DNA of 64,000 nucleotides from Lysobacterales bacterium (GCA_965212525.1 CBDBVC010000013.1:27522-91521); one strand, 5' to 3'; positions 1-46,995 are shown, counted from the first letter of the stretch. Notes: generated by a model not told the origin, from the sequence alone. Program-made: numbers and translations.

Positions 1-1814
1 GGATAAACGTGCTCGCCAAACACCTGCCAGCCGCGTAACTGTCGCTCGCGCCAGCGCAGTTCGGTGATGCGTCTGGAATTACCCAGGTCCTCATTGAAAC
101 CCTCGGCCACGTCAGCAAAATCTTCAGTATTGCGCAACAGCATGGTGTTGGCAGAAATCGAATGCTGGTCATTGATTTTCAGTCCGGCTGTCAGGAACCC
201 GCTGAGATCGATATCGCGCCGTGTGGTGAGCGATCGCTCCTCACTTTCGAGAATCAGTACGTTGTCGGTACCGGTATTGAAATCACGTCGCACTTCTTCA
301 CGGGTTTCATAGGATGAGCCGTAATCGATGGCCGCCGAAAATCCGATCAGCACATCGTTGTCGAACTGATGCCGCATGCCGCCGGAGATCCCGAAGCCAA
401 GGCCCGGATCGATCTCTTGCCGTGACGGCGTGTAAATCGCGTTCAAAGACTCACCGATGGCTTCCAGCTCTTCCGGGCTGAAGCCCTGCGGAAAGAATGG
501 ATTGGCCGGTCGCAGCTCGCGATCACCGGCAATGGCCTCGGCCAGCAAATCCGGGATGTCACGTGTACCGTCATCGTAGCCCAGATCATCGTCATCACCA
601 CCTTGATAGCTAAGTCCCTGCTTGCCGGTGGTCTGATCGTTGTACTCGCTGGACAAGGCGATGCTGAGGAAATTGGACGGCGGGATATTGCGCGTTCTGA
701 GGACCACGGCGCCGCCACCGAATTCTGCAGGAAAGTTTTCGGCATAGCCCTTCTGCACTTCGATGCTTTCGATGATTCCGGTGGGGAACAGGTCCAGCGG
801 TACTACCCGGCGGGTCGGATCCGGGCTGGGCATGTTGGCGCCATTGAGCAGGGTATTCGAATAGCGTTCTCCCAGGCCGCGAATGTAGATGAACTTGCCA
901 TCGACTAGTGTCAGACCGGTCACGCGCTTGAGTGCGCCTGCGGCATCAGAGTCACCAGACTTTGAGATCTGTTCGATGCTGAGAAAATTGGCCACCGTCG
1001 AGGTGTTCTTGCGTTCTTCCAGTACACTGGCCAGTGAACCCTCGATGAACGGTTCGATGACCACAAACTCGGGCAGCTCGGACCCGGCCGGCGTCATTTC
1101 CACGGACAGTTCACGCGTCTGGCCCTCGGCTATCAGCACACCCTCCTCGATCACCGAATTGAAGCGCGAGGACAAGGCACTCACCGAATACTCCCCCACC
1201 GGTAGTTCAATTTCAAAGCGACCGTCTTCATCGGTGATGGCACGTTCATCGGTACCGCTGATGAACACGCGTGCATTGGCAATCGGCTGACGATCCTCGG
1301 CGCTGACCAGCTGGCCACTCAGTATGCCGGTGCGCGAGGGATCGAGAAACTGCAGTTCATCGCTCTGGTTCTGTTCTGCCAGCAATGAGCGATCAACCGA
1401 CGATTCCAGATCAATTTCCGGTTCGTCGCCATCAAGCGGATCACGGGTTCTGAAACTGATGATGACCTGCTGGATTTCAGCGGCCATGACATCGGCTTCG
1501 TAGTGATACAGCGTTTGCCCGTCAACCCGAAACTCCAGCGGGTGTACGCCAGCATCGAGTCGAACCACCACATTGCCATATTCATCAGTGCTGCCCAGTT
1601 TTCGGTCTTCGGAGTATACCTGGGCGTCATCGATTGGTGCCCCCCTGAACATCAGGAAGAACGAGACCATGGCGGGTTCAGCCGCTTGAATGGCTGGAGC
1701 AGCCGCAGAAACACCGGCGTCATTTTCGCCGACATCATTCTGGCTTGCATGAGCCAGGGGCCCGGTCACCAGAAACAATCCAAGCAAGGTGTGGATGAGT
1801 AATCGTTTGATCAT
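1..1814 (-). CDS. TonB-dependent receptor with N-terminal carboxypeptidase-regulatory-like extension (runs off the left edge)
   Basis: Not in the ORF track (no stop in window). Manual translation from ATG 1814: MIKRLLIHTLLGLFLVTGPLAHA (signal peptide) ... GILSGQLVSAEDRQPIANARVFISGT...TDEDGRFEI (CarbopepD-reg-like) ... plug motif SKSGDSDAAGALKRVTGLTLVDGKFIYIRGLGERYSNTLLNG...LDLFPTGIIESIEVQKG...FGGGAV. Frame stays open to position 1. Confidence 0.92.
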   Translation of the reverse strand, partial: MIKRLLIHTLLGLFLVTGPLAHASQNDVGENDAGVSAAAPAIQAAEPAMVSFFLMFRGAPIDDAQVYSEDRKLGSTDEYGNVVVRLDAGVHPLEFRVDGQTLYHYEADVMAAEIQQVIISFRTRDPLDGDEPEIDLESSVDRSLLAEQNQSDELQFLDPSRTGILSGQLVSAEDRQPIANARVFISGTDERAITDEDGRFEIELPVGEYSVSALSSRFNSVIEEGVLIAEGQTRELSVEMTPAGSELPEFVVIEPFIEGSLASVLEERKNTSTVANFLSIEQISKSGDSDAAGALKRVTGLTLVDGKFIYIRGLGERYSNTLLNGANMPSPDPTRRVVPLDLFPTGIIESIEVQKGYAENFPAEFGGGAVVLRTRNIPPSNFLSIALSSEYNDQTTGKQGLSYQGGDDDDLGYDDGTRDIPDLLAEAIAGDRELRPANPFFPQGFSPEELEAIGESLNAIYTPSRQEIDPGLGFGISGGMRHQFDNDVLIGFSAAIDYGSSYETREEVRRDFNTGTDNVLILESEERSLTTRRDIDLSGFLTAGLKINDQHSISANTMLLRNTEDFADVAEGFNEDLGNSRRITELRWRERQLRGWQVFGEHVY

Positions 1815-1845
1815 GGGATTCCAGTTCGGAAATCAGCCCGACTAA

Positions 1846-3021
1846 CTACTGGCAGCGCCAGCTGTCGACCGTGCAATCCTCGATTGCCTTTCTGAGTTCC
1901 AGTGATTTCTTGAACAGTACCGTGTCCGAGATACCGGCCAGATACTGTTCGGATTGACTGAACTGGCCGGTCTTGAAATAGGCATAGGCCAGTGCGTATC
2001 GGATGTCATCCAGCTGATCCAGCCGGTTTCGTTTGAGGGAAACCTCCATTGAGGCAGCCTGATCATAATCACCAGTCTCCAGCAGCAGTGCCAGGCGCTG
2101 CTTGAGCTTGTCCTGCTGATCGGATACCTGGGAGTTCAACGACAGCGCCATGTAATGCTGTCCTGCGCGTCGATACAGTTCAGCCGCCTCACTGAGCAAC
2201 ACGGGGTTCAGCAGAGCAGCCTCGTGCACAATGGCTGCGGCTGAATGATAATGACCGGTATTGATATAGACGAGCGCGAGCGCCTTGGCAACCTGTTCGT
2301 TCTGCGGGTATCGAATCCTGGCCTCCTGCAGAAATTCGAGCGCGAACTGATATTGCCCGGACGCACGCAGGGCATTGCCGATGGCAATGAAATCTTCTGC
2401 ACTGGCATCGTTTTCGGCCAGGTACACTTTTCCGATTTCGGCGGCATCACTGTACAGACCGAGCTCGACGAAATAAAACAGCTTGCGACGATCAAAACTG
2501 GCATCGTCCTCGAACACCGATGACGCCTGATCGAGAACAGCAATGGCTGCTGTATAGTCAGTCAGAAACCAGTGACTTTGCGCGCGCATGTGATACCCCG
2601 ATGGAATGCGTGCAACCGCCTCGCCTGCGCGATCCAGCGATTCGAGTGCCAGTCGGTAGTCTTCCAGAGTATAGGCGGTCTGTGCCAGGTGAACATGGAT
2701 TACCGGTTCAACCTCGCCCAGCTCGATGGCCTTCAGTAACGAATCACGCGCTGCTTCATGTCGATTCAGGCGCCCGGCCAGCATACCGCTGATAACATGA
2801 AAACGCTGAACATCGACACCATCAGCCTCGAGCTCGACCTGCGCCAGCGCCACTTCAGCTCGATCCAGGTTGCCATCCCGCATCATCAGTGAGGCCAGTT
2901 CGAGATAGTCGACTTCGTTCTCATCTGCCGCCTCGTTGTTGGCATGAATCAGTGGAGCAGCACTGAATGCAAGCAATAACACCAGCAGGCGAATGAAGGA
3001 TTGACTGTCACGAAGTTTCAT
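1846..3021 (-). CDS. Periplasmic tetratricopeptide-repeat protein (TtpD-like)
   Basis: Signal peptide, repeated helical TPR-like units, directly downstream of tonB. Confidence 0.85.
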   Translation of the reverse strand: MKLRDSQSFIRLLVLLLAFSAAPLIHANNEAADENEVDYLELASLMMRDGNLDRAEVALAQVELEADGVDVQRFHVISGMLAGRLNRHEAARDSLLKAIELGEVEPVIHVHLAQTAYTLEDYRLALESLDRAGEAVARIPSGYHMRAQSHWFLTDYTAAIAVLDQASSVFEDDASFDRRKLFYFVELGLYSDAAEIGKVYLAENDASAEDFIAIGNALRASGQYQFALEFLQEARIRYPQNEQVAKALALVYINTGHYHSAAAIVHEAALLNPVLLSEAAELYRRAGQHYMALSLNSQVSDQQDKLKQRLALLLETGDYDQAASMEVSLKRNRLDQLDDIRYALAYAYFKTGQFSQSEQYLAGISDTVLFKKSLELRKAIEDCTVDSWRCQ

Positions 3022-3046
3022 GGCGTTGGATCCGGTACTTGCCTGA

Positions 3047-3691
3047 TCAACTCAGGTCAAATCGTATGCGTTGCTTGGCCCAGGACTTGACCGAGCGGCC
3101 ATCATACTGTGCCGGTTCGAACTGCCAGGCATTGATGCCCTGCAGCGCCACGTCATCGAACACACCGGCTGGCTGTGAATCCACCACCTTGACCTGTTCG
3201 ATCTCGCCGGTGATTCCAATCAGCAGCGACAGGATGACATAACCTTCCTGACCCCTGGCGCGGGCACGCGGTGGATAGATCATCGGTGCCTGATAGACCG
3301 CCTTGGGTGGCGCATCCACAGTATCGTCTGTCATGACCATGCCGGCGGAATTGCCCAGAATATCGCCATCCATGCCATTGAGATCGTCCAGTGAAAAATC
3401 GGGCAGGCCCAGATCAATACCAGCAAGTTGAGAATTCAGACCAAGCAACGGTGTGGGTGGTGCCGATCGTCGTGGCTGACGCTTAGGCCTGGGCCTGGGC
3501 CGCTCAACCTTCTGCTGTGTCTTGGGCTTGTCACGCTTGAACTGGATTTCCGTTCCCTTGTTGTCGGCATAACTGTCCGGATTGTCACTGGACTTGTTGA
3601 TCATGATCAGTGTGCCGCATACCAGGACGGTACCCAGCATCATGGATGACAACGCGGTCATCAGTCGTTTTGTTCTGACGTGTCTTTTCAT
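3047..3691 (-). CDS. tonB: Energy transducer TonB
   Basis: N-terminal TM, Pro/Arg-rich linker, C-terminal TonB domain (YPPRARARGQEGYV...VFDDVALQGINAWQFEPA). Confidence 0.92.
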   Translation of the reverse strand: MKRHVRTKRLMTALSSMMLGTVLVCGTLIMINKSSDNPDSYADNKGTEIQFKRDKPKTQQKVERPRPRPKRQPRRSAPPTPLLGLNSQLAGIDLGLPDFSLDDLNGMDGDILGNSAGMVMTDDTVDAPPKAVYQAPMIYPPRARARGQEGYVILSLLIGITGEIEQVKVVDSQPAGVFDDVALQGINAWQFEPAQYDGRSVKSWAKQRIRFDLS

Positions 3692-4101
3692 TAGCCTGCT
3701 CCTACTTCTTTCGAGGTTGCCACACCCACATCGGCCGCTCCGGCCAGACGGGCCTGGTCAACCACTTCAACCAGTTTTCCTGACGGCACATTTTCATCGG
3801 TGACCACCAGAACCGATTTCTGGGTTTTCGATTTGAGCTGATCTCGCAATCGACTCTGGATCACCCAGATCCGGATGCTTTCACCGTCCATGTACACCTC
3901 TCCGCTGTTGTCGATATAGAGTCGGATCGCCTTGGTAGAGGCCACGGTGGCCGTTGCTGCCGAGGGTCGATCCAGATCCAGCTTCAGATCCTTGACGAAG
4001 GTGGTCGACACCATGAAGAAGATCAACAGGATGAAGACCATGTCGATCAACGGCGAGATGTTCAGATCCTGAACGGTTTCCTTGCTTTCGCGATAACGCA
4101 T
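3691..4101 (-). CDS. exbD: Biopolymer transporter ExbD
   Basis: LNISPLIDMVFILLIFFMVSTTF motif. Confidence 0.95.
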   Translation of the reverse strand: MRYRESKETVQDLNISPLIDMVFILLIFFMVSTTFVKDLKLDLDRPSAATATVASTKAIRLYIDNSGEVYMDGESIRIWVIQSRLRDQLKSKTQKSVLVVTDENVPSGKLVEVVDQARLAGAADVGVATSKEVGAG

Positions 4102-4709
4102 TAACGTGCTCCTGATGGCTCATCCAGCTCGGAACACAGGATGTCCTTGAGCTGGGCCATTTCAATCTGGATGTTGCGCTGCTTTCTGTCGAGAATACCG
4201 TTGGCGATCAGCCCCGGGATCGACACAGCCAGCCCCATCTGGGTGGTGATCAGTGCCTGTGAGATGCCGCCGGCGATACCGCCTGATTGTGAAAACAGCG
4301 ACATGTCACCAAGCGACTCGAATGTTTCGATCATGCCTGAAACGGTTCCGAGCAGACCGAGCAGGGGCGCCACCAGTACGATGGTGATGATCAGCACACG
4401 ATACTTGGTGATTTCCCTTTCTTCCTCGGCAAAGGCGTCGTCGAGATAACGACGCAGGTTGTCCTTTCCCTTGCGTTGAAGCTTCATGCCCTTCTTGAGC
4501 ACTCGGGTCATGACGCCATCACCGCTGGGTTTCTTGCCCTTGAGGTGCCTGTAAACGAGGGCACGAGCACCACGCGGGGTACCGCGCTTCAGTGCGGCAT
4601 AGCGATATCCCAGTGTCCACCACAACACGATGGTCGCCAGTATCAATGGTGGCATGACGTAGCCGCCGGCACCGATGTAATAGGACAGTTGTGAGATCGC
4701 GTCGAACAT
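4101..4709 (-). CDS. exbB: MotA/TolQ/ExbB proton channel protein
   Basis: APLLGLLGTVSGMIETF ... GGISQALITTQMGLAVSIP. Confidence 0.93.
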   Translation of the reverse strand: MFDAISQLSYYIGAGGYVMPPLILATIVLWWTLGYRYAALKRGTPRGARALVYRHLKGKKPSGDGVMTRVLKKGMKLQRKGKDNLRRYLDDAFAEEEREITKYRVLIITIVLVAPLLGLLGTVSGMIETFESLGDMSLFSQSGGIAGGISQALITTQMGLAVSIPGLIANGILDRKQRNIQIEMAQLKDILCSELDEPSGAR

Positions 4710-4716
4710 GGCCCGG

Positions 4717-6129
4717 TCAGTCTTTCTTCACGTCATGGAACACGTTGATGGCGCGCAGGGCGGCCTTCTCCATATCGTCCTTGATCCGTTCGGCCCAGCC
4801 CGACAGCACGTTGCCGAACAACAGGGTCGGAATGGCCACGGCCAGTCCAATTTCAGTGGTCACCAGTGCAATCGAGATTCCACCGGACAACAGTGCCGGG
4901 TCGCCGGTGCCGAATTCGGTGATAATGTCGAAGGTCGCAATCATGCCGGTTACGGTACCGAGCAGCCCCAGCAACGGGGATACCGTCGCAATCACCAGAA
5001 TCAGGGAGCCGAAGCGGTTCAGCTGGCTTGATTCATGAAGGATGGATTCCGAGACGATGTCTTCCAGATGGTCGCGGTCCTTGTCGAGGTTACGCAATGC
5101 TGATCCCAGCACTCTCGAGTTTGAACTCTTTCTCATGCCACACAGCTTGATGGCACCGGGCACATCGCGATCTCGAATTCGCTCCACCACCTGACGAAGC
5201 AGTGATTCGGTACTGGAGCTTGCCAGTTTGAGAAACACGAATCGTAGAATAATCAGGACCAGGGCAATCATGCCGAGCACGGCAATGATCCAGGCGATGA
5301 TGCCACCGGAGGCAATCACGCCCATGATGGTCTTGCCCTGTGACTCCTCGATTGCCTTGAGTGAGGATTCGAACAGGAAGACCGGCGTGACCGTCGATGG
5401 CTGACCACTGAGCAATGCCGTGGCAGCCTGGTTGTCGGCATCGTTCCAGATCTTGAAGCGATTATCACCGGCTGGTGCCAGCACACCATTACCCTCACTG
5501 CTCTGCCCGTAGGCAGCGATGTTTCCGACACGTGTGATGCTGCCAGTCACCTCACGGCCATCAGCCAGATAGAACGAGCCATCAGTTCGTGTGATGCTCG
5601 ACTTTTCGGCAGTCAGCTCAACCGCCGCAGTGACCAGTGCCCTGACCTGTTCGATTTCCGACGCTACCGTTTCAGCCTCGTCATTCACTGGCTTCAGGTT
5701 GTATTCTTCGAGAGTAGCGCTGGCCTGGACAATGGTGGACTCTAGCAGGCCCTTGTTGTCTTCAGCCGACTCGGACGTACGCTCCACCTCATAAATGTCC
5801 TGACTGAGCCGGTCAGCCTGATTGGCCAGATCCAGCATCTCGTTTTCCAGCGCATTGATTTGCTGCTCGATCTGGCGGGATTGTGCAGCAGACTCGGTTT
5901 CGTAACTGGCAATGCGTGTGCGGATATCCTTGACCTGTGCGGTCAGGAAGGCGTATTCCTTTTCATAGGCGTTACGCAGCGCCTGTTCAGCCGCCTGTGG
6001 ATCTGCAGCCGGAACCGGTGTCGGCTCAGGCGTGGTAACGGTGGTTTCAGATGCCGTCTCATTCTCCTGGGCCTGAACAGTCCCGATCAGCAGCACACCA
6101 AGGGTTAATAGAATAAGTATGTGTTTCAT
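4717..6129 (-). CDS. Long MotA/TolQ/ExbB family protein with periplasmic coiled-coil domain (TtpC-like)
   Basis: Signal peptide, coiled coil, C-terminal PLLGLLGTVTGMIATF...GGISIALVTTEIGLAVAIP. Confidence 0.9.
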   Translation of the reverse strand: MKHILILLTLGVLLIGTVQAQENETASETTVTTPEPTPVPAADPQAAEQALRNAYEKEYAFLTAQVKDIRTRIASYETESAAQSRQIEQQINALENEMLDLANQADRLSQDIYEVERTSESAEDNKGLLESTIVQASATLEEYNLKPVNDEAETVASEIEQVRALVTAAVELTAEKSSITRTDGSFYLADGREVTGSITRVGNIAAYGQSSEGNGVLAPAGDNRFKIWNDADNQAATALLSGQPSTVTPVFLFESSLKAIEESQGKTIMGVIASGGIIAWIIAVLGMIALVLIILRFVFLKLASSSTESLLRQVVERIRDRDVPGAIKLCGMRKSSNSRVLGSALRNLDKDRDHLEDIVSESILHESSQLNRFGSLILVIATVSPLLGLLGTVTGMIATFDIITEFGTGDPALLSGGISIALVTTEIGLAVAIPTLLFGNVLSGWAERIKDDMEKAALRAINVFHDVKKD

Positions 6130-6135
6130 TGTCGT

Positions 6136-6891
6136 TTAGCTCGCTGGAATACTGATCGTACCGGGCAGCTCGAAATAGCCCTGACGTATCTGTTTCTGAA
6201 GAGAATCAAACAGCACCTTGATCTGCTCGACGGATGTGCTGTCATCGATAATCTGGTATGACCAGCCATTGTCACGACGCACGGCCTGGCCGTACTGTTC
6301 ATCGCGTGTTCTGAAATACATCATGACTGTCCCCAGTTTGGCGACGTCAGCCAGTACGCTCTGCCCATTCAGGGTGATGGTCTGGGAATAGATCGCATTT
6401 TCGCGGGTGATCCGGATCTCATCTTCGAGAAAGGCCCACAGTTCGTTCACTGCCTTCTGGGCTGTGATTTTGCGGCCCTCAAGCTTCAGCCGTGTGTCGT
6501 TGATTGCCTGGGCACGTTCAACCTGCTTGAACGGTATGCCCGTTTCGAGGTTGGCCTGGATCTGCTCAATCAGCAGCATGACATCGGGGATGAGTGTTTC
6601 CGAATCAGAACCCAATTCGGCGATACGGACACGCAGGATCTTGAGATCATTTTCCAGACCCGTGACACGCAGCCGTTCACGATCCCGATTGGCTTCCAGT
6701 TCAGCACGGCGCGTGCTCAGGTAGGCCATCTTGTTCTTGTGTTCTTCAGTCTGAATTTTCAGCTCGGACTGAAGGTCCTCAACCTGCCCACGCAGGGTGA
6801 CCAGGTTGTCAACCAGTTCTTTGATATCCTGCTGAGCAGACACAGACAGCGCCATCAGCAGCAGTGATGTACATAATAAGGTGCGGAACAT
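6136..6891 (-). CDS. DUF3450 family periplasmic coiled-coil protein (TtpB-like)
   Basis: Start at ATG 6891 (MFRTLLCTSLLLMALSVSA signal); coiled coil, IPFKQVER and KLGTVMMYFRT motifs; first gene of the TonB operon. Confidence 0.8.
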   Translation of the reverse strand: MFRTLLCTSLLLMALSVSAQQDIKELVDNLVTLRGQVEDLQSELKIQTEEHKNKMAYLSTRRAELEANRDRERLRVTGLENDLKILRVRIAELGSDSETLIPDVMLLIEQIQANLETGIPFKQVERAQAINDTRLKLEGRKITAQKAVNELWAFLEDEIRITRENAIYSQTITLNGQSVLADVAKLGTVMMYFRTRDEQYGQAVRRDNGWSYQIIDDSTSVEQIKVLFDSLQKQIRQGYFELPGTISIPAS

Positions 6892-6938
6892 CTGGGAGTA
6901 TCCCCGAGAATAAAACCCGCATAGTTTAAAAACCCTTT

Positions 6939-6956
6939 GTGACAGAAAAATTACAA
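6939..6956 (-). promoter_or_regulatory. Putative Pho box upstream of the TonB operon
   Basis: Minus strand reads TTGTAAT-TTTT-CTGTCAC, close to the PhoB consensus CTGTCAT-N4-CTGTCAY. Confidence 0.65.
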
Positions 6957-7062
6957 AGACCGGTGGGATCAAGGCAGTCTTATCCGTATTGCGGAAAGCT
7001 GCAGCCTTTGTATTTCATGATCTGACGCTGGCTGGCTGGGAATATATGCACGCGCGATCCTG

Positions 7063-7102
7063 CTGTCATCAAACCTTAACACCGCAGTCATCGAACTGAA
7101 AT
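7063..7102 (+). promoter_or_regulatory. Putative four-unit Pho box upstream of the secreted protein
   Basis: CTGTCAT-CAAA-CCTTAAC-ACCG-CAGTCAT-CGAA-CTGAAAT: four heptamers at exact 11-bp period. Confidence 0.75.
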
Positions 7103-7161
7103 ATTCGCTCTGTACAGTGCAGCGACTTTACATGAACCCCACTGAGAACAGGTGTTAAATT

Positions 7162-8919
7162 ATGAACGTTAAGACGACTGCCCGCACTGTACTGGCGGTA
7201 TCGGTACTGGGCGCATCCTCCATGGTTGGCGCCATCAATATTGATGAAGTATTTGAAGGCCAGTGGTTCCAGACTGGCTCCAGCCGAGGCTGGGAACTGG
7301 ATTACATCAAGACTGGCCCGGAACGTGGCCTGATGTTTCTGACCGGATTCGTCTATGGTGATGACGGCAACCCGCTGTGGGTGGTAGGACAGGACGAGGT
7401 GGTTCCCGGTGACACCACACTGGACTTTGATCTGCTGACTGTCACAGGTGGCATCTTCGGCCCCGGACCCAGCACCACCACCAACGCCGTTTTCGGCAAC
7501 ATGACCATGACGGTCAACGATTGCAATAACATCGACGTCAGCATCACCAACATCAACAGCCCGTTTGTTGCACAGTCCGAGTCCTCATTTTCACTGGAGC
7601 CCTTCGACACCATCGGCGGTACACCTCGTGATGCTTCGGTGTGCGCTTACCAGGTGCCATTCACTGCCTGTCCATCGTTTGCAACAGATGGCCCGACACC
7701 TCGTTCCTGTGTCCTGCAGGGTACGCTGAGCGGCAACATGACACTGACCAACAACACCACCTGGCTGCTCAATGGTGGTGTGTTCGTGGGTGGCGACAAT
7801 ACCAATCAGGGTGTTCTGACCATTGAACCAGGCACACGCATTGTCGGCCTGTCAGGTAACGACTTCCTGTCTGTCCAGCGTGGATCACAGATTATTGCAG
7901 ACGGTTCACCAAAAGCACCGATTGTGTTCACGGGCCCGTTCCCGGCAGGCGACCCGCAAGCAGGCGCCGGTAACTGGGGCGGCCTGGTCATCAATGGCAA
8001 TGCACCGATCAATATCTGCGACGAAAGCGTTCCCTTCGCCATGTGTGAAGATATCGGCGAAGGTGGTTCAGGAAACTTCGGTGGCGACAATCCCAACGAT
8101 TCCAGTGGCATCCTGCGCTATGTCCGCGTCCAGTTCGGTGGCTTCCGCATCAACGACGAAGACGAACTGAACGGTATTGCCTTCCAGGCGGTCGGTGACG
8201 GTACTGTTGTCGATTTCGTACAGGTTCACGCCAATGAAGACGACGGTGTCGAGTTCTTTGGCGGCACAGTGAATGCCAGGCACATCGTGCTGACGGGCAT
8301 CAAGGATGACAGCCTGGACTGGACACACGGCTGGGACGGTTCGCTGCAGTACCTGCTCGTGAAGCAGGACGCCAACGCCGCCAATGACAAGGAACGCGGC
8401 ATCGAAGCAGACAACTTCGAAGACAACAACGACGCCACTCCACGCTCGCAGCCAAGGATTGCCAATGCGACCTTCATTGGCGGCCCGTCCGACAACAAGA
8501 CCACCACCGGCATGGTGTTGCGTCGCGGCACCGGGCTGAACATCACCAATTCGGTCGTCACCGGGTTCGAGCGTTGCCTGGACATCGACAGCAGTGCGAC
8601 ATTCAATGCAGCCGGATCAATCGGCAGCCTGAGTGGCACACTGACGATGGAAAACACGGTCATCAGCTGTGACACCAACTTCGATGAAGAAGCCGAAGAC
8701 GGTTTTGCCGTCAGCGATTTCTTCAACAATCAGGCGGGCAACGAAGTGACCAACCCGGGTCTGAACAACATCTACCCACCCGCCGGTGCTTCCTATCTCA
8801 ACGGCAAGGTGATGGACTTCAGCATCTTCGGTGACTTTTTCGACAAGGTCGAATACTCGGGTGCATTCAGTGGCCAGGGAACAGCCTGGACCAACGGCTG
8901 GACCGAGTTCCTCGACTGA
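7162..8919 (+). CDS. Secreted acidic protein: N-terminal beta-rich domain plus beta-helix-like domain
   Basis: Signal peptide; LTIEPGT, NWGGLVING, SSGILRYVRVQFGG, ELNGIAF, DDGVEFFGG, DDSLDWTHGW, GIEADN, C-terminal WTNGWT. Confidence 0.85.
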   Translation: MNVKTTARTVLAVSVLGASSMVGAINIDEVFEGQWFQTGSSRGWELDYIKTGPERGLMFLTGFVYGDDGNPLWVVGQDEVVPGDTTLDFDLLTVTGGIFGPGPSTTTNAVFGNMTMTVNDCNNIDVSITNINSPFVAQSESSFSLEPFDTIGGTPRDASVCAYQVPFTACPSFATDGPTPRSCVLQGTLSGNMTLTNNTTWLLNGGVFVGGDNTNQGVLTIEPGTRIVGLSGNDFLSVQRGSQIIADGSPKAPIVFTGPFPAGDPQAGAGNWGGLVINGNAPINICDESVPFAMCEDIGEGGSGNFGGDNPNDSSGILRYVRVQFGGFRINDEDELNGIAFQAVGDGTVVDFVQVHANEDDGVEFFGGTVNARHIVLTGIKDDSLDWTHGWDGSLQYLLVKQDANAANDKERGIEADNFEDNNDATPRSQPRIANATFIGGPSDNKTTTGMVLRRGTGLNITNSVVTGFERCLDIDSSATFNAAGSIGSLSGTLTMENTVISCDTNFDEEAEDGFAVSDFFNNQAGNEVTNPGLNNIYPPAGASYLNGKVMDFSIFGDFFDKVEYSGAFSGQGTAWTNGWTEFLD

Positions 8920-8942
8920 TCTGAAACACGATTGGCACAAGC

Positions 8943-8972
8943 AAGGGCGCGTCTTCTGACGCGCCTTTTTTT
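8943..8972 (+). terminator. Rho-independent terminator
   Basis: AAGGGCGCGTC-TTCT-GACGCGCCTTT followed by a T run. Confidence 0.85.
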
Positions 8973-8995
8973 ATTTCAGTTTACAGGTGTGCGCT

Positions 8996-9844
8996 TCAAC
9001 CCAGGATTTGCTGCCGCATGAACTCAGGCAATTGCTGACTGGCTTTGTGTATGGCCGCATTGTAGTAACGGTTTTCGAGTTCGTCTCCAAGTTCATGACA
9101 GGGGTATTCGGAAAACGAATTCTGCCTGCCAGCCAGGGTTACGCACCACCAGCCTGATGGGTAACAGGGTTGTGGGAACAGAAAATGCCGTACGCTGTCG
9201 AAACCGGCTTCCTTCAGGCGATCCCTGAGGTCGCTCAGCAGCGACTGGTGCAGCAACGGTGATTCACTCTGCATGCCCAGCACACCACCGGACGCGATGG
9301 CTTGATGACAGGCCCTGAAAAAGTCAGTGGATACCAGGCCTTCAGCCATGTCGACCGGGTCGGTGGAATCAACCAGTATCAGATCCTGTGAACCGGGCTC
9401 GCAGGTATCGATCCAGGCGAGGCCGTCCTCAAACAGCAGTTCAGCACGAGGGTCATCATTGGCGACACAGAGCTCTGGAAAGAACTGCTCACTGACACGG
9501 GTTACACGTTCATCGATTTCAATCTGTGTTGCCTGCTTCACCTGCGGATACTTCAGCACCTCTCTGAGGGTACCGCAATCGCCACCGCCGATGATGGCTA
9601 CGCGTGAAGGTACAGTGATCGAATTGATGGCAGGCTGGGCCAGCATCTCGTGGTAGATGAAGTTTTCCCGACCGGTCAGCATCCAGCAACCATCCAGCGC
9701 CATCAGATGGCCGAAATCGGTCGATTCCCAGATCTCTATCAGCTGAAAGTCCGATTGCTCCTCATGCAGTTTACGCCTGACACGAAAACCGATGGAACTG
9801 CCACTGGCATCGAACCGCTCCTCTATCCAGTCCTGTTCATTCAT
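8996..9844 (-). CDS. speE: Polyamine aminopropyltransferase (spermidine synthase)
   Basis: YHEML, IIGGGDCGTLRE, EID, LVDSTDP, YPSGWW motifs; start at ATG 9844 (MNEQDWIEE). Confidence 0.95.
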   Translation of the reverse strand: MNEQDWIEERFDASGSSIGFRVRRKLHEEQSDFQLIEIWESTDFGHLMALDGCWMLTGRENFIYHEMLAQPAINSITVPSRVAIIGGGDCGTLREVLKYPQVKQATQIEIDERVTRVSEQFFPELCVANDDPRAELLFEDGLAWIDTCEPGSQDLILVDSTDPVDMAEGLVSTDFFRACHQAIASGGVLGMQSESPLLHQSLLSDLRDRLKEAGFDSVRHFLFPQPCYPSGWWCVTLAGRQNSFSEYPCHELGDELENRYYNAAIHKASQQLPEFMRQQILG

Positions 9845-9976
9845 CACGCATGTCCGGCTCAGATAATTCGGTGTCGGATTGTATACAGTTTTATCGCCAT
9901 CTGCATGCTGAGAAGTGAAACATCCGGGTATTACACATTGGTTCACATTCCGTTAACAGATGTTGACAAAGTTCGC

Positions 9977-10005
9977 TTGAGTGTCGTCGTATCAATCTCT
10001 AGACT
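9977..10005 (+). promoter_or_regulatory. Putative sigma70 promoter for the candidate sRNA
   Basis: TTGAGT-17 bp-TAGACT. Confidence 0.5.
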
Positions 10006-10010
10006 AAAAA

Positions 10011-10150
10011 CCGTCTCCCCAACCCCCTCATCCATACGCACTCTGGGGGGACATCGCCGTATCCGCTGTGATTTCACAGCGGGTACTTTTGGCGATTCGT
10101 TTTACCTCCCTCGAATTTATGGGCCGGCAATGACCGGCCCATAGTTTTTT
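10011..10150 (+). ncRNA. Candidate small regulatory RNA with C-rich loops
   Basis: Intergenic; four consecutive stems, ACCTCCC loop, terminal GC hairpin plus T6; upstream promoter-like sequence. Confidence 0.55.
10118..10150 (+). terminator. Rho-independent terminator (T run on + strand; may also end the glmU transcript)
   Basis: TATGGGCCGG-CAATGA-CCGGCCCATA-G-TTTTTT. Confidence 0.8.
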
Positions 10151-10167
10151 GTGACACTGCCAGCAGT

Positions 10168-11538
10168 TCAGCCAGATGATTTGACAGGCTTTTGCCAGCC
10201 CGGCACTGTTTTCTGGCGGCTTCTTGACAGTGTCAGCGCGTCATCAGGAGTGTCCTTCGTGATCGTGGAGCCGGCGCCGATGACCGCATTGCGGCCAATA
10301 CTGACCGGCGCCACCAGCTGTGAATCCGAGCCGATGAAGGCACCATCACCGATCTCGGTCTGATACTTGTTGACGCCATCGTAATTGCAGGTGATGGTGC
10401 CGGCACCGATGTTGACACCATCTCCGATTCGCGCATCACCCAGGTAACTGAGATGATTGGCCTTGCTGCCGACACCCAGCGATGCTTTCTTGATCTCCAC
10501 AAAATTACCCACCCGCGTCTGCCGGGACAGACGTGTACCCGGCCTGAGTCTGGCAAAGGGGCCAATATCGCAATCACCATCGGTGACCACACCCTCGAGC
10601 ACTGAATAGGCCTGAACGCGTGTTTCTGGACCCAGAACACAGTCGGTCAGTACACAGCCGGGACCAATCCGACAGCCATCGCCCAGTGTGTTTTTGCCCT
10701 CGAAAACGGTATTGATATCGATATGCACACCCTCGCCCACGTCCATGTCGCCACGAATGTCGATTCGGGCACGGTCGGCAATCGTCACGCCCTTTTCGCA
10801 CAGGACATCGGCGGTGCGCTGCTGGTACAACCGTTCCAGAACAGACAACTGCAAGCGGTCATTGGCACCGAGGATCTCATCTGCAACGCGACATCGCACC
10901 GCCGAGACGGGCATGCCCCTGCTGCGTGCCACTTCGATCACATCGGTCAGATAGATTTCGGCGCGGTCATGATGTTCGGCGACATGCGTCAGACATTCGC
11001 TGATCACTGAAACCGGGCCTGCCATCATGCCACTGTTGACTTCCTGTATGGCCAGCTGTTGATCATCGGCATCCCTGTCTTCAACTATCTGCGTCAGTGA
11101 ATCGTTCTCATCCCGAACAATACGTCCATAGCCACCCGGATCCTGCAGGTTGGCCGTGAGAATGGCAGGTCCCTCCTGCGAGGCATCAATCAACCGCTTC
11201 AGGCTATCGAGTTCCAGCAGGGGTGTATCGCCTAACAGCACCAGTATTCGGGCATTCGCTTCGATATCGGGACATGCCTGCATCACTGCGTGGCCGGTTC
11301 CAAGTTGCTGTTGCTGATCAACCCAGTTGACGTCGTAATCTGAAAATTGCTGCTTGACCAGATGCGATTTGTGGCCAATCACCACATGAATGCATTCAGG
11401 TTCTGTCCGGGCCGCCAGCTCGAGTACGTGCTGCAGCATTGGGCGCCCGGCAACTTGTTGCAGGACCTTGGGTAAATCCGATTGCATGCGCTTGCCCTGA
11501 CCGGCTGCCAGGATGACGATGTGTAGGGGTTTTGGCAT
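10168..11538 (-). CDS. glmU: Bifunctional UDP-GlcNAc pyrophosphorylase / glucosamine-1-phosphate N-acetyltransferase
   Basis: ILAAGQGKRM...LPKVL, QLGTGHAV, hexapeptide repeats, HLSYLGD, GAGTITCNYDG. Confidence 0.98.
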   Translation of the reverse strand: MPKPLHIVILAAGQGKRMQSDLPKVLQQVAGRPMLQHVLELAARTEPECIHVVIGHKSHLVKQQFSDYDVNWVDQQQQLGTGHAVMQACPDIEANARILVLLGDTPLLELDSLKRLIDASQEGPAILTANLQDPGGYGRIVRDENDSLTQIVEDRDADDQQLAIQEVNSGMMAGPVSVISECLTHVAEHHDRAEIYLTDVIEVARSRGMPVSAVRCRVADEILGANDRLQLSVLERLYQQRTADVLCEKGVTIADRARIDIRGDMDVGEGVHIDINTVFEGKNTLGDGCRIGPGCVLTDCVLGPETRVQAYSVLEGVVTDGDCDIGPFARLRPGTRLSRQTRVGNFVEIKKASLGVGSKANHLSYLGDARIGDGVNIGAGTITCNYDGVNKYQTEIGDGAFIGSDSQLVAPVSIGRNAVIGAGSTITKDTPDDALTLSRSRQKTVPGWQKPVKSSG

Positions 11539-11921
11539 GATATCGCCTGTCGATTTGTACAGCTCAAGTCTAGCATAGACGCCGCTGCGAGCCCGATCGT
11601 GAAGCGATGTTCAATTCGCTCAGTGGCACTGCCATCATACCGACAGGTGACTGACCGCACTGGGACACGACAATGGCATGACGTGTTCGGGTTTCATAGG
11701 GTAAAGGTCAGATGACAGTCTTATTGGAGGGAATGCTGAAGATGAAGCAAGGCAATTTGCCGTCCTTGGCATTCCACATGGGAGGGATCCTTTCCACTTT
11801 CCTCTGCTTGCTGCGGGAGTATTATCTCCAATCAAGCCGCTGTACCATAAGGTCGATCTGTCCTGTCAGCGTGTAGGAAAATTGCCATAGCCCGTGTAGG
11901 GCACCAACATGGGAGCCACAT

Positions 11922-12362
11922 TTGATTTCTCTGTTACAGCGAGTGACGCATGCCTGCGTGCATATCAATGATGAAAAGGTTGCGCGTATCGGTCAGGGCC
12001 TGCTGGTGCTGAACGGTTTCGAGCCGGACGATGATGAGCGTGTGCTCAGACGAATGCTTGAGCGCCTGCTGGCCTATCGTGTATTTCCCGATGATGCTGG
12101 CAGGATGAACCGGTCTCTGCTGGATATATCCGGTGAATTGCTGCTGGTGCCGCAGTTCACCCTGGCAGCCGATACTCGAAGTGGTAATCGACCCGGTTTC
12201 TCAACGGCCGCTGCACCCGAATTGGGTCAGAGGCTGTTCGAAAGATTCCTTGCCATCGCCAGACAGGAATTGCCGGAAATTCAGTGCGGCAAATTTGGTG
12301 CCGACATGCAGGTCAGCTTGACGAATGATGGGCCGGTGACGTTTTGGTTACACGTCCACTGA
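11922..12362 (+). CDS. dtd: D-aminoacyl-tRNA deacylase
   Basis: LLQRV, VPQFTL, FGADMQVSLTNDGPVT. Confidence 0.96.
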   Translation: MISLLQRVTHACVHINDEKVARIGQGLLVLNGFEPDDDERVLRRMLERLLAYRVFPDDAGRMNRSLLDISGELLLVPQFTLAADTRSGNRPGFSTAAAPELGQRLFERFLAIARQELPEIQCGKFGADMQVSLTNDGPVTFWLHVH

Positions 12363-13401
12363 GTTCATAGGCCTTGTGCATGAACTCGGCAATGATGGCT
12401 TCTCCCGTGGTGCCATCGGAGGGTTCTTCACCATAGACTTCCCGCATGTGATCACAGAGGCTGGTCAGCAGGGGAGCATTCTCTTCCTTCAGCGGCCCGA
12501 GAATGGTCTGGCCTATCTTCGAATCGAACTGGTGCAGCGTGAAGAAATAGCCTTCCTGCCCGTTGGTGAGAAAACCGAGCGCCGGTTTGGCCGATTCGAC
12601 ACCCAGGTCGCGCTTGCAGCGGTATTCGATTTCCTTGCATAGACGAACCGCACTCTTGGTGAACCTCAGGAACGGTTCGGCCACATTGGCCGTATCCAGA
12701 TCCGATGCGATCAGCGTCAGTCGAGCACGACGCTTGAGGACGGGATCTTCGCGCCAGTCGGGGCTCTCCCTGTCCATGGCCTGCACCAGAATCGGTGCCA
12801 TCGCACCACAGGAGGAGGCAGCCTCGGGTGGTGAAATGTTGGGATTATTCTTGGGCTGCACGTTGAAGGTCGAGCCGGCGATCATCATCTCCAGGTCATC
12901 ATAAACGTCATGATGCTCTTCACGATCAAAGCCCGCGATATCGAGAATTCGATGAGCCTCGTGAATACTGGCCTGTTCGTTGGCACCGATGACGGCATCG
13001 TGATCGGGCACCTCGCGCTGACGCAGGTCATGCATCGCTGCAAACATGGTGAGCATGACCCAGTCCAGCGGTGGCAGCACATCCGGACTTGAATTCTCAC
13101 ACAGATAATCGATGCGATCGGACAGGATCTCGACCACATGGGTTTCATTATGATAATGGTGCAGGTCTTCGCCCCAGCTGCCGTATCGTCTTGCCATCCT
13201 GGCATAGCTGATGATCAGTGCTACTTCAGTCCTGTCGAGAAAATCGTCATGCTCGTGCCCGAATGTGGCAACAAACTTGTCCCGGCGCTGCTTCAGATAA
13301 CGAAGGAATGCCGGATCATTTTCAGATAACAGTCCACGCGCTGTCCTGATATTGGCAACTTCGAGCTCGATACTGTCAGGCGTGCTTCGCTGGTTAGACA
13401 T
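12313..13401 (-). CDS. HD-superfamily metal-dependent phosphohydrolase (PDEase-like motifs)
   Basis: YHNETH, AAMHDL, ASDLD motifs; 3' end overlaps dtd by 50 bp. Confidence 0.7.
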   Translation of the reverse strand: MSNQRSTPDSIELEVANIRTARGLLSENDPAFLRYLKQRRDKFVATFGHEHDDFLDRTEVALIISYARMARRYGSWGEDLHHYHNETHVVEILSDRIDYLCENSSPDVLPPLDWVMLTMFAAMHDLRQREVPDHDAVIGANEQASIHEAHRILDIAGFDREEHHDVYDDLEMMIAGSTFNVQPKNNPNISPPEAASSCGAMAPILVQAMDRESPDWREDPVLKRRARLTLIASDLDTANVAEPFLRFTKSAVRLCKEIEYRCKRDLGVESAKPALGFLTNGQEGYFFTLHQFDSKIGQTILGPLKEENAPLLTSLCDHMREVYGEEPSDGTTGEAIIAEFMHKAYELSGRVTKTSPAHHSSS

Positions 13402-13514
13402 TAAGTGTTTGTTATTTCAGATCGCCGTTGCGCTGCGACCCGTTCCCCTGCATGTCATTGATAAATAAACCCTACACGTTCGCGACGCAAACGTCCATAG
13501 TTCTGCACCCGAGA

Positions 13515-14144
13515 TCATCCCCCGCTGCGTGTGTTTGCTGTCCGGTTGGCATTGGTTCCGGGAAATGCCAGCGACGAACCTGCATTGACGGCTGAATTAC
13601 CTGGTGCATTCGGGTTCTGGATCGATTGCTGTTTCATGTGAAAGGTCACCGGTCCGGCACTCGCCAGAATGATCCCTTTCGAATCCACGATCTCCATGAT
13701 CAGCTGGTGTTCTCCGCGAAAGATGTCCGTGAGCTCGGCCACAAAACTGGTTTCCTGGGTCTGCAGTTCACCATCAATATAGAAGCGAACCGAATCACCA
13801 CGTCGCAAGGTCTGGTCAGACTGTGCAGCTGCAGTCAGTTTGCCACCGGTACCCCAGAGGTTTTCATCCTCGGTCGGTGAGGTGATGATGAAATTGCTGT
13901 AAAGCTCAATGTCTTCAAGCGGTTGTGGATCCGGCTGGACAGGCGCCTCTGGCTGAATTGGCTTGAATGCTTCAACCACCGTAATGGGTGCAAGCTCGAG
14001 CGGTTCAGCATTTTCGTTGGGCGGCTGATCGGTGTACACGACATTGCCGTTCTCGTCGTAGGTCTTGTAAATATCCTGTGCGACAGTGACTGCAGAGGTA
14101 AAGACACTGGTAGCCAGGATGGAGAACATGGTCAATCGCAACAT
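13515..14144 (-). CDS. DUF4124 domain-containing exported protein
   Basis: Signal peptide then IYKTYDENGNVVYTDQPP; C-terminal Ig-like segment (FRGEHQL). Confidence 0.85.
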   Translation of the reverse strand: MLRLTMFSILATSVFTSAVTVAQDIYKTYDENGNVVYTDQPPNENAEPLELAPITVVEAFKPIQPEAPVQPDPQPLEDIELYSNFIITSPTEDENLWGTGGKLTAAAQSDQTLRRGDSVRFYIDGELQTQETSFVAELTDIFRGEHQLIMEIVDSKGIILASAGPVTFHMKQQSIQNPNAPGNSAVNAGSSLAFPGTNANRTANTRSGG

Positions 14145-14220
14145 GGGCGAATGCTCCGGATACAATCTCTTTTCATTGTAGCAGCTGCCGTGAAGCAAGC
14201 GAAGCCGTTGAAATAAGGAC

Positions 14221-14253
14221 AAAAAAAGCCGGTGTCATGTCGACACCGGCTTT
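14221..14253 (-). terminator. Rho-independent terminator of glnA
   Basis: GCCGGTGTC/GACACCGGC stem with T7 on the minus strand. Confidence 0.85.
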
Positions 14254-14270
14254 CTGGTCCAGCAATCGCC

Positions 14271-15680
14271 TTACAGCGAGTAGTACATGTCGAATTCGAC
14301 CGGATGCGTGGTCATCCTGAATCGTGTCACCTCGTCCATCTTGAGGGCGATGTAGGCATCGATCAGGTCATCGGACATGACGCCGCCCACCTTGAGGAAT
14401 TCACGGTCAGAATCCAGCGCTTCAAGCGCCTGATCCAGTGAGTGACAGACTGTCGGAATGTTCTTCTCTTCTTCCGGTGGCAGATCATAGAGATCCTTGT
14501 CCATGGGTGCACCCGGGTCAATCTTGTTTCGGATGCCGTCAAGACCGGCCATCATCATGGCGACGAAGGTGAAATACGGGTTGCCGGTTGAATCACCAAA
14601 GCGAATTTCAATCCGTCGTGCCTTAGGACTCTCGACAAACGGGATGCGGCAAGAGGCTGAACGGTTGCGGGCAGAATAGGCCAGCAGCACGGGTGCTTCG
14701 AAGCCTGGCACCAGACGCTTGTAACTGTTGGTGGATGCATTGGCAAAGGCATTGATTGCCCGTGCATGCTTGAAGATGCCTCCGATATAATGCAGTGCCG
14801 TCTCGGAAAGCCCGCCGTAGCCTTCACCGCTGAACAGATTGTTGCCTTCCTTGGACAGCGACTGGTGAACGTGCATTCCGCTGCCGTTGTCACCGACGAC
14901 CGGCTTCGGCATGAAGGTGGCGGTCTTGCCATAGGCATGGGCCACATTCTGTACCACGTACTTGAGCGTCAGTACCTCATCGGCCTTCTTCAGCAGGGTG
15001 TTGAATCGTGTGCCGATTTCACACTGGCCAGCGGTTGCCACCTCGTGGTGATGCACCTCGACGGGCAGCCCCATGGCTTCCATGGTGGTACACATGGCAG
15101 AACGAAGGTCATGCAGGGAATCCACAGGTGGTACGGGAAAATAACCACCCTTGACGCCCGGGCGATGACCCACATTGCCATGATCGTATTTTGTATTGGT
15201 GTTCCAGGCCGCTTCTTCCGAATCGATGCGGTAGGAATTACCCTTCATGTCATCTGTCCAGCGGACATTGTCGAAGACGAAGAATTCAGGCTCGGGACCG
15301 AAAAATGCAGTATCAGCCAGTCCGGTGGAAAGCAGGTACTCCTGAGCGCGTCGCGCAGTCGAGCGCGGGCAACGGTCATAGCCTTCCATGGTGTTGGGTT
15401 CGAGAACATCACAGCGAATGTTCAGTGTCAGCTCTTCGGCAAATGGGTCCAGTACGGCCGTCTCGGGGTCTGGCATCAGGATCATGTCCGATTCATTGAT
15501 CCCCTTCCAGCCGGATATCGATGAACCGTCGAACATCTTGCCATCTTCGAACAGGGATTCATCAACTACAGAGGCAGGTACGGTGACGTGCTGCTCCTTG
15601 CCAAGGGTGTCGCAAAAACGAAGATCGACGAAACGTATCTCATCATCCTCGATGCGCTTCAGTATCGTATCAGCAGGCAT
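14271..15680 (-). CDS. glnA: Glutamine synthetase type I
   Basis: FDGSSI, HHHEVA, ATFMPKP...[17 protein letters not shown], adenylylation site DLYDLP. Confidence 0.99.
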
Positions 15681-15807
15681 TGTGGTCGCTTCCTATGAGA
15701 GATTTTGAACGGAGCTGTGAGTATATCGAAATGATGCCAAAAGGACAGAAGAGAATTAGAGCAATCCATCTAATTTCTGCCTCTGGACAGGCATCATTGC
15801 GGCGGCT

Positions 15808-16452
15808 TCAGCCCCGGTTTGCAGCCAGTTCGTCGAGATCCGGATGCAGTGAATATCGTACTGACAATGTTGCCTGGTCAATGATGTGATCGGTGATTGC
15901 CGAAGCCACATCTGCCGATGTGAAGACTTCGGGCAGATCCAGACGCTCGACATCGAGGGCATACACCGTGAAATGATAATGGTGCATGCGTTCATCGTTC
16001 CAGGGTGGGCAGGGCCCATCGTATCCATGGTACTGACCCGCCATCTCGCCACCGGCAAAGAAACCGGTGTAATCATTCAGCCCCTGACGGCTGCCGGCCG
16101 GACCCGGCGGATTCTGCTTTCCGCCTACAGTCACCTCAGCAGAACAGGCCTTTTCTTCCAGCTGTCGTGTATCAGAGGGAATATTGATCATCGACCAGTG
16201 ACAGAAATCACAGCGAGGCAGGTCGACAGGGATCATCTCCTGTTCGGTATTGACCAGTTCCGGCACAGTAGGCACATCCGGATCGATACAGAGCAACGCA
16301 AAGGATTTGGTGCCGTCCGGTACATCCTGCCATTCAAGCTGTGGGCTGACATTGTCAGACAGCGCCATGTGGTTGTCTGCATCAATACGGCCGAATGCGT
16401 ATCTTGCCAGCATGAACCTGCCATTCTCTATACTGATGGAAGTCAGCTTCAT
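15808..16452 (-). CDS. YbhB/YbcL family Raf kinase inhibitor-like (PEBP) protein
   Basis: SP.L.W, DPDVP, HW, YDGPCPP, HHYHFTVYALD. Confidence 0.93.
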   Translation of the reverse strand: MKLTSISIENGRFMLARYAFGRIDADNHMALSDNVSPQLEWQDVPDGTKSFALLCIDPDVPTVPELVNTEQEMIPVDLPRCDFCHWSMINIPSDTRQLEEKACSAEVTVGGKQNPPGPAGSRQGLNDYTGFFAGGEMAGQYHGYDGPCPPWNDERMHHYHFTVYALDVERLDLPEVFTSADVASAITDHIIDQATLSVRYSLHPDLDELAANRG

Positions 16453-16482
16453 GGACTGATTACCTCTGCGTCATGTTGATTG

Positions 16483-46922: not shown

Positions 46923-46995
46923 CAGGGAGACTCCTGTTTATGATGTCAGTATTGTGACAGAAGAACGTCAATGAGGGGTGAAGCTTGCAGACAGC

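Follow-up and report, generated by a model that had tools for sequence, protein, structure and literature searches.

A probable PhoB-activated locus for phosphorus scavenging in a Lysobacterales bacterium: a TonB3-type motor with its own receptor, divergent from an ElpS-type beta-helix protein

A stretch of 64,000 nucleotides from the genome of a Lysobacterales bacterium (GCA_965212525.1, C13:27522-91521), referred to here as the window, begins with a seven-gene operon on the minus strand that encodes a TonB motor and a TonB-dependent receptor, and with a divergently oriented gene on the plus strand that encodes a secreted beta-helix protein of 585 aa, P0001. The gene content of this locus, the quality of its promoter sites, the conservation of its promoter architecture and of its gene partnership, and the membership of P0001 in a described protein family were established by computation. 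On this evidence the locus is probably a PhoB-activated divergent pair that scavenges a phosphorus-containing compound across the outer membrane, acquisition of phosphorus being the simplest reading of an importer that belongs to the Pho regulon. All positions are those of the window unless another record is named.

Gene identities were assigned by Pfam domain search, and all seven contiguous genes of the minus strand received the identities that an earlier reading of the window (the sequence-only reading) had given them, with the DUF3450 gene first and the receptor gene last. The operon opens with a TtpB-like DUF3450 protein (6136-6891, minus strand, as for all seven genes; DUF3450, E 2e-23), for which a start at the TTG at 6972, taken from an open reading frame (ORF) listing, was rejected as spurious, the real start being the ATG at 6891. 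It continues with a long, TtpC-like ExbB paralog of 470 aa (4717-6129; MotA_ExbB at the C-terminal residues 335-454), ExbB (4101-4709; MotA_ExbB, E 1e-26), ExbD (3691-4101; ExbD, E 1e-28), whose gene overlaps each of its neighbours by one base, TonB (3047-3691; TonB_C, E 4e-20) and a TtpD-like tetratricopeptide repeat (TPR) protein (1846-3021; TPR_2, TPR_8 and TPR_19) that occupies the last position among the motor genes, as ttpD does. The receptor gene (3-1814; CarboxypepD_reg and Plug) is truncated by the start of the window, which holds its N-terminal 604 aa; the complete protein comprises 1067 aa (L001:111-3314), and the gene extends ~1.39 kb past the window edge. The plug (residues 270-359) is preceded by a long N-terminal extension including the CarboxypepD_reg domain (residues 165-241) and is followed by a large beta-barrel, as is found in TonB-dependent transporters (TBDTs); the C-terminal barrel (residues 741-1067) matches TIGR01782 with 203 bits, which is under the subfamily cut-off. 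Because the distances between the genes amount to only -1 to 31 bp, the receptor gene lying 31 bp past the TPR gene, the seven genes fit a single operon.

The gap between the DUF3450 gene and the gene encoding P0001 spans 270 bp (6892-7161) and contains two sets of repeats, located exactly where the sequence-only reading had placed them. Facing P0001, a candidate Pho-box promoter of the beta-helix gene (7063-7118, plus strand) comprises four heptamers at an 11-bp period (7063-7102; CTGTCAT, CCTTAAC, CAGTCAT and CTGAAAT, separated by caaa, accg and cgaa), a 10-bp spacer and the -10 hexamer TACAGT (7113-7118). Facing the operon, a candidate Pho-box promoter of the motor and receptor genes (6923-6956, minus strand) comprises TTGTAAT-tttt-CTGTCAC (6956-6939), a 10-bp spacer and the -10 hexamer TAAACT (6928-6923). 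The Pho box as defined in Escherichia coli lies 10 bp upstream of the -10 element and replaces the -35 element. At both sites of the gap, at least two direct 7-bp repeats with a period of 11 bp were found that resemble the Pho heptamers of the host.

For scoring, a matrix was built from nine heptamers of the host's own phoB, oprP, pstS and phoX promoters. In this genome phoB lies beside phoR and the pst operon on C1, phoX is located on C37, and the genes for the OprP-like porin and for PstS are both found upstream of pstCAB-phoU. In each of the four control promoters two or three heptamers recur every 11 bp, and in the pstS, oprP and phoX promoters the -10 hexamer is positioned exactly 10 bp downstream of the box, which is the spacing found at both sites of the window. 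The minus-strand dimer scored 18.75, a value reached by only 10 of 9,021,148 genome positions; four of these ten lie between genes, and two of the four intergenic ones had served as training sites. The plus-strand array of four heptamers scored 19.9 and ranked fourth among 9,018,420 genome positions, and of the three positions above it, one is the oprP promoter and two are registers of a single C51 site. With such ranks and the shared -10 spacing, the genome scan bears out the proposal that both sets of repeats behave as Pho boxes. No Fur-like site was found in the gap, as had been noted before: the best match to a Fur consensus was 11/19, a level reached by 24,470 genome positions. A sigma-70-like match at 7041-7069 on the minus strand (ATGACA, 17 nt, TATATT; 10/12) is aimed at the motor operon, and its -35 element overlaps the first plus-strand heptamer; it may be a chance hit, as the region yielded two such matches where 1.1 were expected.

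Conservation of the two promoters was followed in genomes of the same order, where homologs of P0001 are present in 125 of 201 sampled genomes. The orthologous set consisted of 29 loci with 40-68% identity to P0001, and in 25 of them a DUF3450 gene is divergent to the P0001 homolog. Four heptamers followed after 10 bp by TAnnnT face the P0001 homolog in 28/29 loci, and the plus-strand array scored at least 12 in 26/29 loci versus 0/180 coding windows of the same size from the same loci; selection of the arrays made no use of the -10 hexamer. Conservation in orthologous promoters, on which the sequence-only reading had staked its proposal, was thus observed. Even the weak second heptamer of the array recurs in most of the 29 loci. 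On the minus strand, the best dimer scored at least 15 in 12/29 loci, and TAnnnT was found at +10 bp in 21/29. Among 73 more distant loci, in which gene starts were crudely called, a dimer scoring at least 15 was present within 300 bp upstream in 21, versus 0 of 218 control windows.

The same matrix detected further sites in the host genome. High-scoring dimers lie upstream of a 1027-aa extracellular nuclease (Endonuclease_1 and LTD; C38:12938, plus strand) and of a 1040-aa TBDT-like outer-membrane protein with CarboxypepD_reg and OMP_b-brl_4 (C54:19517, minus strand), both of which are likely additional members of the Pho regulon. Extracellular nucleases and TBDTs are both protein classes induced by depletion of inorganic phosphate (Pi) in Flavobacterium johnsoniae (PMC8115612). 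The best Pho-box array of the genome is located at C51:5955-6005 (plus strand), consists of five heptamers at an 11-bp period with a four-heptamer score of 26.4, and precedes a 129-aa ORF of the glyoxalase family (C51:6054-6443). Within the window, a further Pho-box-like dimer was observed at ~46943-46960 on the minus strand (C13:74481; CTGTCAC aata CTGACAT, 12/14 versus a simple consensus).

The order of the motor genes, DUF3450, long ExbB paralog, ExbB, ExbD, TonB and TPR, is that of TonB2/TonB3-type systems and matches the TtpB-TtpC-ExbB-ExbD-TonB-TtpD arrangement of Vibrio with which the motor had been compared from the start (PMC6957404). In Vibrio vulnificus, the TonB3 locus joins ttpB3-ttpC3-exbB3-exbD3-tonB3-ttpD3 to an outer-membrane receptor gene; no function is known for TonB3, which is not regulated by iron (PMC6957404). 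The window operon likewise unites six motor components and a receptor and, judged by its promoter, is not iron-related, as in the TonB3 subtype; the likeness is one of gene layout. The receptor gene is first in the Vibrio TonB3 operon and last in the window operon, and neither a link to phosphate nor a beta-helix partner is described for TonB3 in the accessible text (PMC6957404). The Vibrio TonB2 motor has the same gene order and domain content as that of the window, but it is under Fur control, works with many siderophore receptors, and its operon lacks a receptor gene (PMC6957404), whereas the window locus has Pho boxes and a dedicated receptor, and the Fur box that goes with iron regulation in the TonB2 subtype was not found there. 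The host possesses a second, separate TtpB-TtpC-ExbB-ExbD-TonB-TPR operon (C43:205940-211109), which is a distant paralog with an ExbD 34% identical to that of the window, and whose TtpB and TPR proteins gave no blastp match to their window counterparts. This operon is TonB2-like: its six-gene run contains no receptor gene, and neither a Pho box (best dimer 5.6) nor a clear Fur-like site was found with it.

P0001 (7162-8919, plus strand) is composed of a signal peptide (residues 1-24), a lipocalin-like barrel (~25-160) and a PF28492 beta-helix (~165-570). In line with its description as an acidic secreted protein in the sequence-only reading, it has a Sec (type I) signal peptide and a mature isoelectric point of 4.05, with 73 acidic versus 24 basic residues and 8 Cys. 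The gene is followed by an intrinsic-terminator-like hairpin (8943-8968, plus strand; 11-bp stem with 7 GC pairs, then a T run). A search of the P0001 sequence against a Pfam copy lacking the PF28492 model, NCBIfam and the PDB sequences gave no match, and PF28492 (Beta_helix_4) was assigned to P0001 and to all 120 homologs listed from precomputed Pfam annotation. In the Atlas cluster of P0001, 100% of members carry PF28492 (score 0.99; Beta_helix_4, 'pectate-lyase like beta helix'). The homologs detected number more than 3,000, and among the matches listed every one named by its source is a 'hypothetical protein'.

An AlphaFold model of P0001 from the single sequence was discarded (predicted local distance difference test, pLDDT, 35), and a model from a 66-sequence alignment reached a pLDDT of 92 and a predicted template modelling score (pTM) of 0.90. 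In this model residues 165-570 form a right-handed parallel beta-helix, for which NosD, phage tailspikes, AlgE4, AlgG and PL6 lyases are tied at Z 21-23. A Foldseek search of the PDB returned only weak, generic beta-helix and lipocalin matches (best E 1.7e-4), and assignment to a specific enzyme family was given up as the matches are generic. Residues ~25-160 form a lipocalin-like barrel with a Foldseek probability of 1.0 to nitrophorins and retinol-binding protein. Among the invariant residues are DDGxExFGG, DDSxD and an E-x-D-N motif, which lie on successive coils, and three Cys pairs are conserved as well. A lipobox is present in 12 of 13 long homologs, versus just 7 of 53 sequences of the P0001 clade that fit a loose pattern, and in these seven the Cys is still part of the signal peptide and precedes an A-x-A site. 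The lipocalin-like domain is confined to the P0001 clade, and in many other homologs the alignment starts only at about residue 165; in the P0001 lineage the domain takes the place of the lipid anchor. One sequence, P0178 (PF28492 plus a PstS-like domain), was considered as a domain fusion and rejected, as a truncated PstS-like fragment is joined to a complete ElpS-like preprotein with its own signal peptide; it represents a gene-call artefact or, at most, adjacency, and was not used.

The sequence-only reading had missed that P0001 belongs to the family of Caulobacter ElpS, Flavobacterium FII and Bacteroides BT4056. Of 201 genomes from the order to which Maricaulis salignorans belongs, 151 are matched by a profile of this family, and lipoproteins of ~490 aa encoded at seven loci from this group are 34-39% identical to P0001 (E 1e-45 to 1e-55). 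Each of the seven lipoprotein genes adjoins a receptor gene, and a gsp cluster lies alongside in the four that were closely inspected; Caulobacter-type lipoproteins with both a receptor and a gsp cluster nearby reach 38-39% identity (E 1e-52 to 1e-55). Relatives of these lipoproteins are labelled Caulobacter, Phenylobacterium and Brevundimonas and carry PF28492; one Caulobacter-type lipoprotein is 34% identical to P0001 over 432 residues (E 7e-59), and the lipoproteins of Caulobacter spp. that match P0001 carry a LALAGC lipobox and adjoin receptor and gsp genes. P0001 also matches a protein of Parabacteroides distasonis that is encoded beside a receptor (32.5% over residues 168-583, E 3e-42) and other receptor-adjacent proteins of Bacteroidales. 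When Caulobacter crescentus ElpS itself was sought by a lipobox LAGC at positions 17-20 together with Asn38, no homolog fitted from its listed start. LAGC occurs within the first 45 residues in 19 of the 120 homologs listed, mostly inside a LALAGC lipobox, and P0210 fits the ElpS positions only if its start is moved three codons downstream, which is suggestive only.

ElpS (CC0170) of Caulobacter is made only under phosphate starvation and not upon iron depletion, and its gene adjoins that of the receptor CC0171 (PMC2996285). The protein is located at the cell surface, where it is sensitive to proteinase K, is then released by proteolysis, and is encoded near a type II secretion cluster (PMC2996285). 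Like ElpS with CC0171, P0001 is an extracytoplasmic PF28492 protein encoded beside a TonB-dependent receptor; unlike ElpS, a lipoprotein of ~490 aa, it has no lipobox and carries the additional lipocalin-like domain at its N-terminus. The Caulobacter locus comprises type II secretion genes but lacks a TonB motor of its own, which the window locus has. In F. johnsoniae, which possesses the family members FI, FII and FIII, FII (Fjoh_0546) is encoded beside the TBDT Fjoh_0545 in the phoBR cluster, both proteins are strongly induced by Pi depletion only, and FII is abundant in the exoproteome (PMC8115612). BT4056 and BT4055 of Bacteroides are proposed transporter 'lids', and homologous pairs are adjacent in 621 genera (bioRxiv 10.1101/2023.03.17.533168). 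The window locus resembles both pairs in combining a protein of pectin-lyase fold with a transporter that carries CarboxypepD_reg and Plug domains. The Flavobacterium and Bacteroides partners are surface lipoproteins, and a TtpB/TtpC/TtpD motor is not reported with them in the accessible portions of these sources.

A survey of neighbours within 9 kb was carried out at 76 loci that hold a PF28492 family member. A homolog of the window receptor lies beside the family member in 64 of these loci, across several phyla, which marks the secreted protein as a true partner of the receptor. Homologs of TtpC, ExbB, ExbD and TonB were found in 22-23 of the 76 loci, again in several phyla, and DUF3450 and TPR in 15-16, which is an undercount by tblastn, as an annotated DUF3450 gene of Alteromonas macleodii was missed. 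All eight genes, mostly on one strand, are present in records of Marinicella, Lysobacterales, Methylothermaceae, Nitrosomonas, Bacteriovoracaceae, 'Deltaproteobacteria' and Planctomycetota, and a Spirochaetales contig breaks off after seven of the eight. A phoB-like gene with at least 43% identity to the host PhoB lies within 9 kb in 20/76 loci, which lends the Pho link independent support; all six of the nearby phoB genes tested passed the PhoB equivalog cut-off, and both weaker matches tested failed it. The annotated order in A. macleodii is phoB, phoR, phosphate-binding protein, 2-oxoglutarate oxygenase, beta-helix protein, receptor, DUF3450, ExbB, ExbB, ExbD, TonB and TPR. In NZ_OX359244.1, an A. 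macleodii record labelled plasmid pBGP9, the family member has 1356 aa and three places match P0001; the record holds phoBR and pstS and looks chromosome-like for a 'plasmid'.

Beyond the P0001 gene, the window contains a spermidine-synthase-family gene (8996-9946) and a GlmU-like gene (10168-11538), both on the minus strand and convergent to the P0001 gene, which seem unrelated to the locus described here.

The mechanism that we infer from sequence comprises PhoB binding, induction, a location of the partner outside the cell, its contact with the transporter, and a phosphorus-containing cargo. Under phosphate starvation, phosphorylated PhoB would bind both Pho-box promoters of the 270-bp gap. 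Leftward, the seven-gene operon would be switched on, providing a six-part TonB motor (TtpB/DUF3450, TtpC, ExbB, ExbD, TonB and TtpD/TPR) and its own transporter; rightward, the monocistronic gene would be switched on, providing the secreted, very acidic ElpS/Beta_helix_4 protein. P0001, which has no lipid anchor, would probably exit the periplasm via one of the two type II secretion systems of the host, whose genome contains two GspD genes over the cut-off. The beta-helix protein would act as an accessory of the transporter that captures or processes the substrate, and the motor would energise import. This picture is in keeping with the sequence-only reading, whose claims were borne out wherever they could be checked.

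Several observations speak against this interpretation. The training sites of the scoring matrix were picked by eye, led by a consensus sequence. The plus-strand heptamers are weak when scored pairwise (ranks ~1,000 to 17,000), the second scoring -1.4, and the case for the plus promoter draws on the four-heptamer sum and on conservation. The beta-helix matches of P0001 are generic, with NosD, tailspikes, epimerases and lyases tied, and the sequence itself points to no substrate, as had been anticipated by the sequence-only reading. In Caulobacter, the receptor CC0171 was reported to be constitutive, and purified ElpS was without phosphatase activity (PMC2996285). Finally, P0001 has neither a lipobox nor a Cys near the signal-peptide cleavage site and could be periplasmic.

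The last point leads to a different assignment within a PhoB-controlled module, in which the beta-helix protein would stay in the periplasm and would handle imported cargo or assist the periplasmic N-terminal domains of the transporter, instead of capturing substrate at the surface or outside the cell. Besides the type I signal peptide and the scarcity of lipoboxes in the clade, the long extension with CarboxypepD_reg ahead of the receptor plug would suit such a role, and the top structural match, although tied, is the periplasmic NosD (Z 23.0, rmsd 3.5, 281 residues). NosD is, however, tied with many unrelated beta-helices, the genome encodes two type II secretion systems, and the known relatives are surface-exposed or released, as described for ElpS and for FII in the exoproteome. 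We regard a periplasmic P0001 as rather unlikely.

It is more doubtful still that the PhoB-controlled locus imports something other than phosphorus, with P0001 as a polysaccharide-active enzyme or enzyme activator and with a transporter for a carbon compound, a metal or a signal within a general response to starvation. The structural neighbours of P0001 are all carbohydrate-active beta-helix proteins or tailspikes, and the invariant DDGxExFGG and DDSxD could form a glycosidase-/lyase-type site or a metal site. Moreover, overproduction of ElpS raised phosphatase activity only indirectly, and a change in cellular phosphate was not detected (PMC2996285). Against this stand the recurrence of Pho boxes and of nearby phoBR or pstS genes in distant lineages and the response of the F. 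johnsoniae homologs to Pi, and not to N or Fe limitation (PMC8115612).

Lastly, that the heptamers are chance matches or sites of another OmpR-family regulator and that the operon is an ordinary iron-type TonB2 system is very improbable. In its favour, such systems are classically Fur-regulated (PMC6957404), and the genome encodes many OmpR-family regulators, with 62 proteins matching the PhoB model and none over its cut-off (TIGR02154, 296.2 bits), the host PhoB beside phoR/pst (C1:72354-73028, minus strand) lying just below it with 289.8 bits, but the top genome ranks under the host's own Pho matrix, the architecture shared by 26-28 of 29 orthologous promoters versus 0/180 controls, phoB genes adjacent to the family elsewhere, the lack of a Fur-like site in the gap and the paralogous C43 motor operon without a Pho box all argue against it.

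Beyond the preferred reading of a PhoB-activated phosphorus scavenger, a wider interpretation can be put forward tentatively as a whole. The eight genes might constitute one mobile PhoB-controlled module, with TonB3-type motors serving phosphorus scavenging and not iron uptake, that is distributed across Gamma- and Betaproteobacteria, Bdellovibrionota-like lineages, Planctomycetota and Spirochaetota. The acidic groove of the beta-helix might bind its cargo, perhaps a polyanionic organophosphate polymer or a metal-phosphate complex, and in the P0001 clade the lipocalin-like domain might serve for anchoring in place of the lipid tail. Concerning mobility, the closest relatives of P0001 (58-68% identity) are found in another family of the order and are Marinicella-like in the named records, and in genomes of the window's own family the identity to P0001 is only 35-48%. 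P0001 had no match in the single genome sampled from the same genus (92% complete), and a contig of an uncultured Marinicella carries all eight genes at 55-90% identity. Together, these observations suggest acquisition by horizontal transfer.

Caulobacter and Flavobacterium already provide known cases in which an ElpS-type protein is paired with a TonB-dependent transporter and controlled by phosphate. Among the literature matches listed, none links DUF3450/TtpB or TonB3 to phosphate starvation or to ElpS-type proteins, as judged from titles, abstracts and term counts. PMC2536512 contained no information about the locus, and the apparent mentions of ElpS in PMC12872454 and PMC7748154 proved to be parts of journal DOIs. 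Coupling of a TonB3-type motor into one eight-gene PhoB-controlled module appears undescribed among these matches, and neither the conserved back-to-back Pho-box architecture nor a non-lipidated partner with a lipocalin-like domain was found among them.

Pi-starvation-induced TonB-dependent transporters and their ElpS-type partners rank among the most abundant proteins of starved Caulobacter and Flavobacterium, and to our knowledge nobody knows the cargo of these pairs. The locus described here indicates that such a pair can bring its own six-part TonB motor under shared PhoB control, and it offers a testable function outside iron uptake for the orphan TonB3-type motor and for DUF3450/TtpB, TtpC and TtpD. 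The conserved promoter architecture could be used as a marker of the Pho regulon in uncultured marine Gammaproteobacteria, and a soluble, non-lipidated partner should ease purification for ligand screening and structural work. If it is true that the cargo is an organic or polymeric pool of phosphorus, the module would bear on marine phosphorus cycling.

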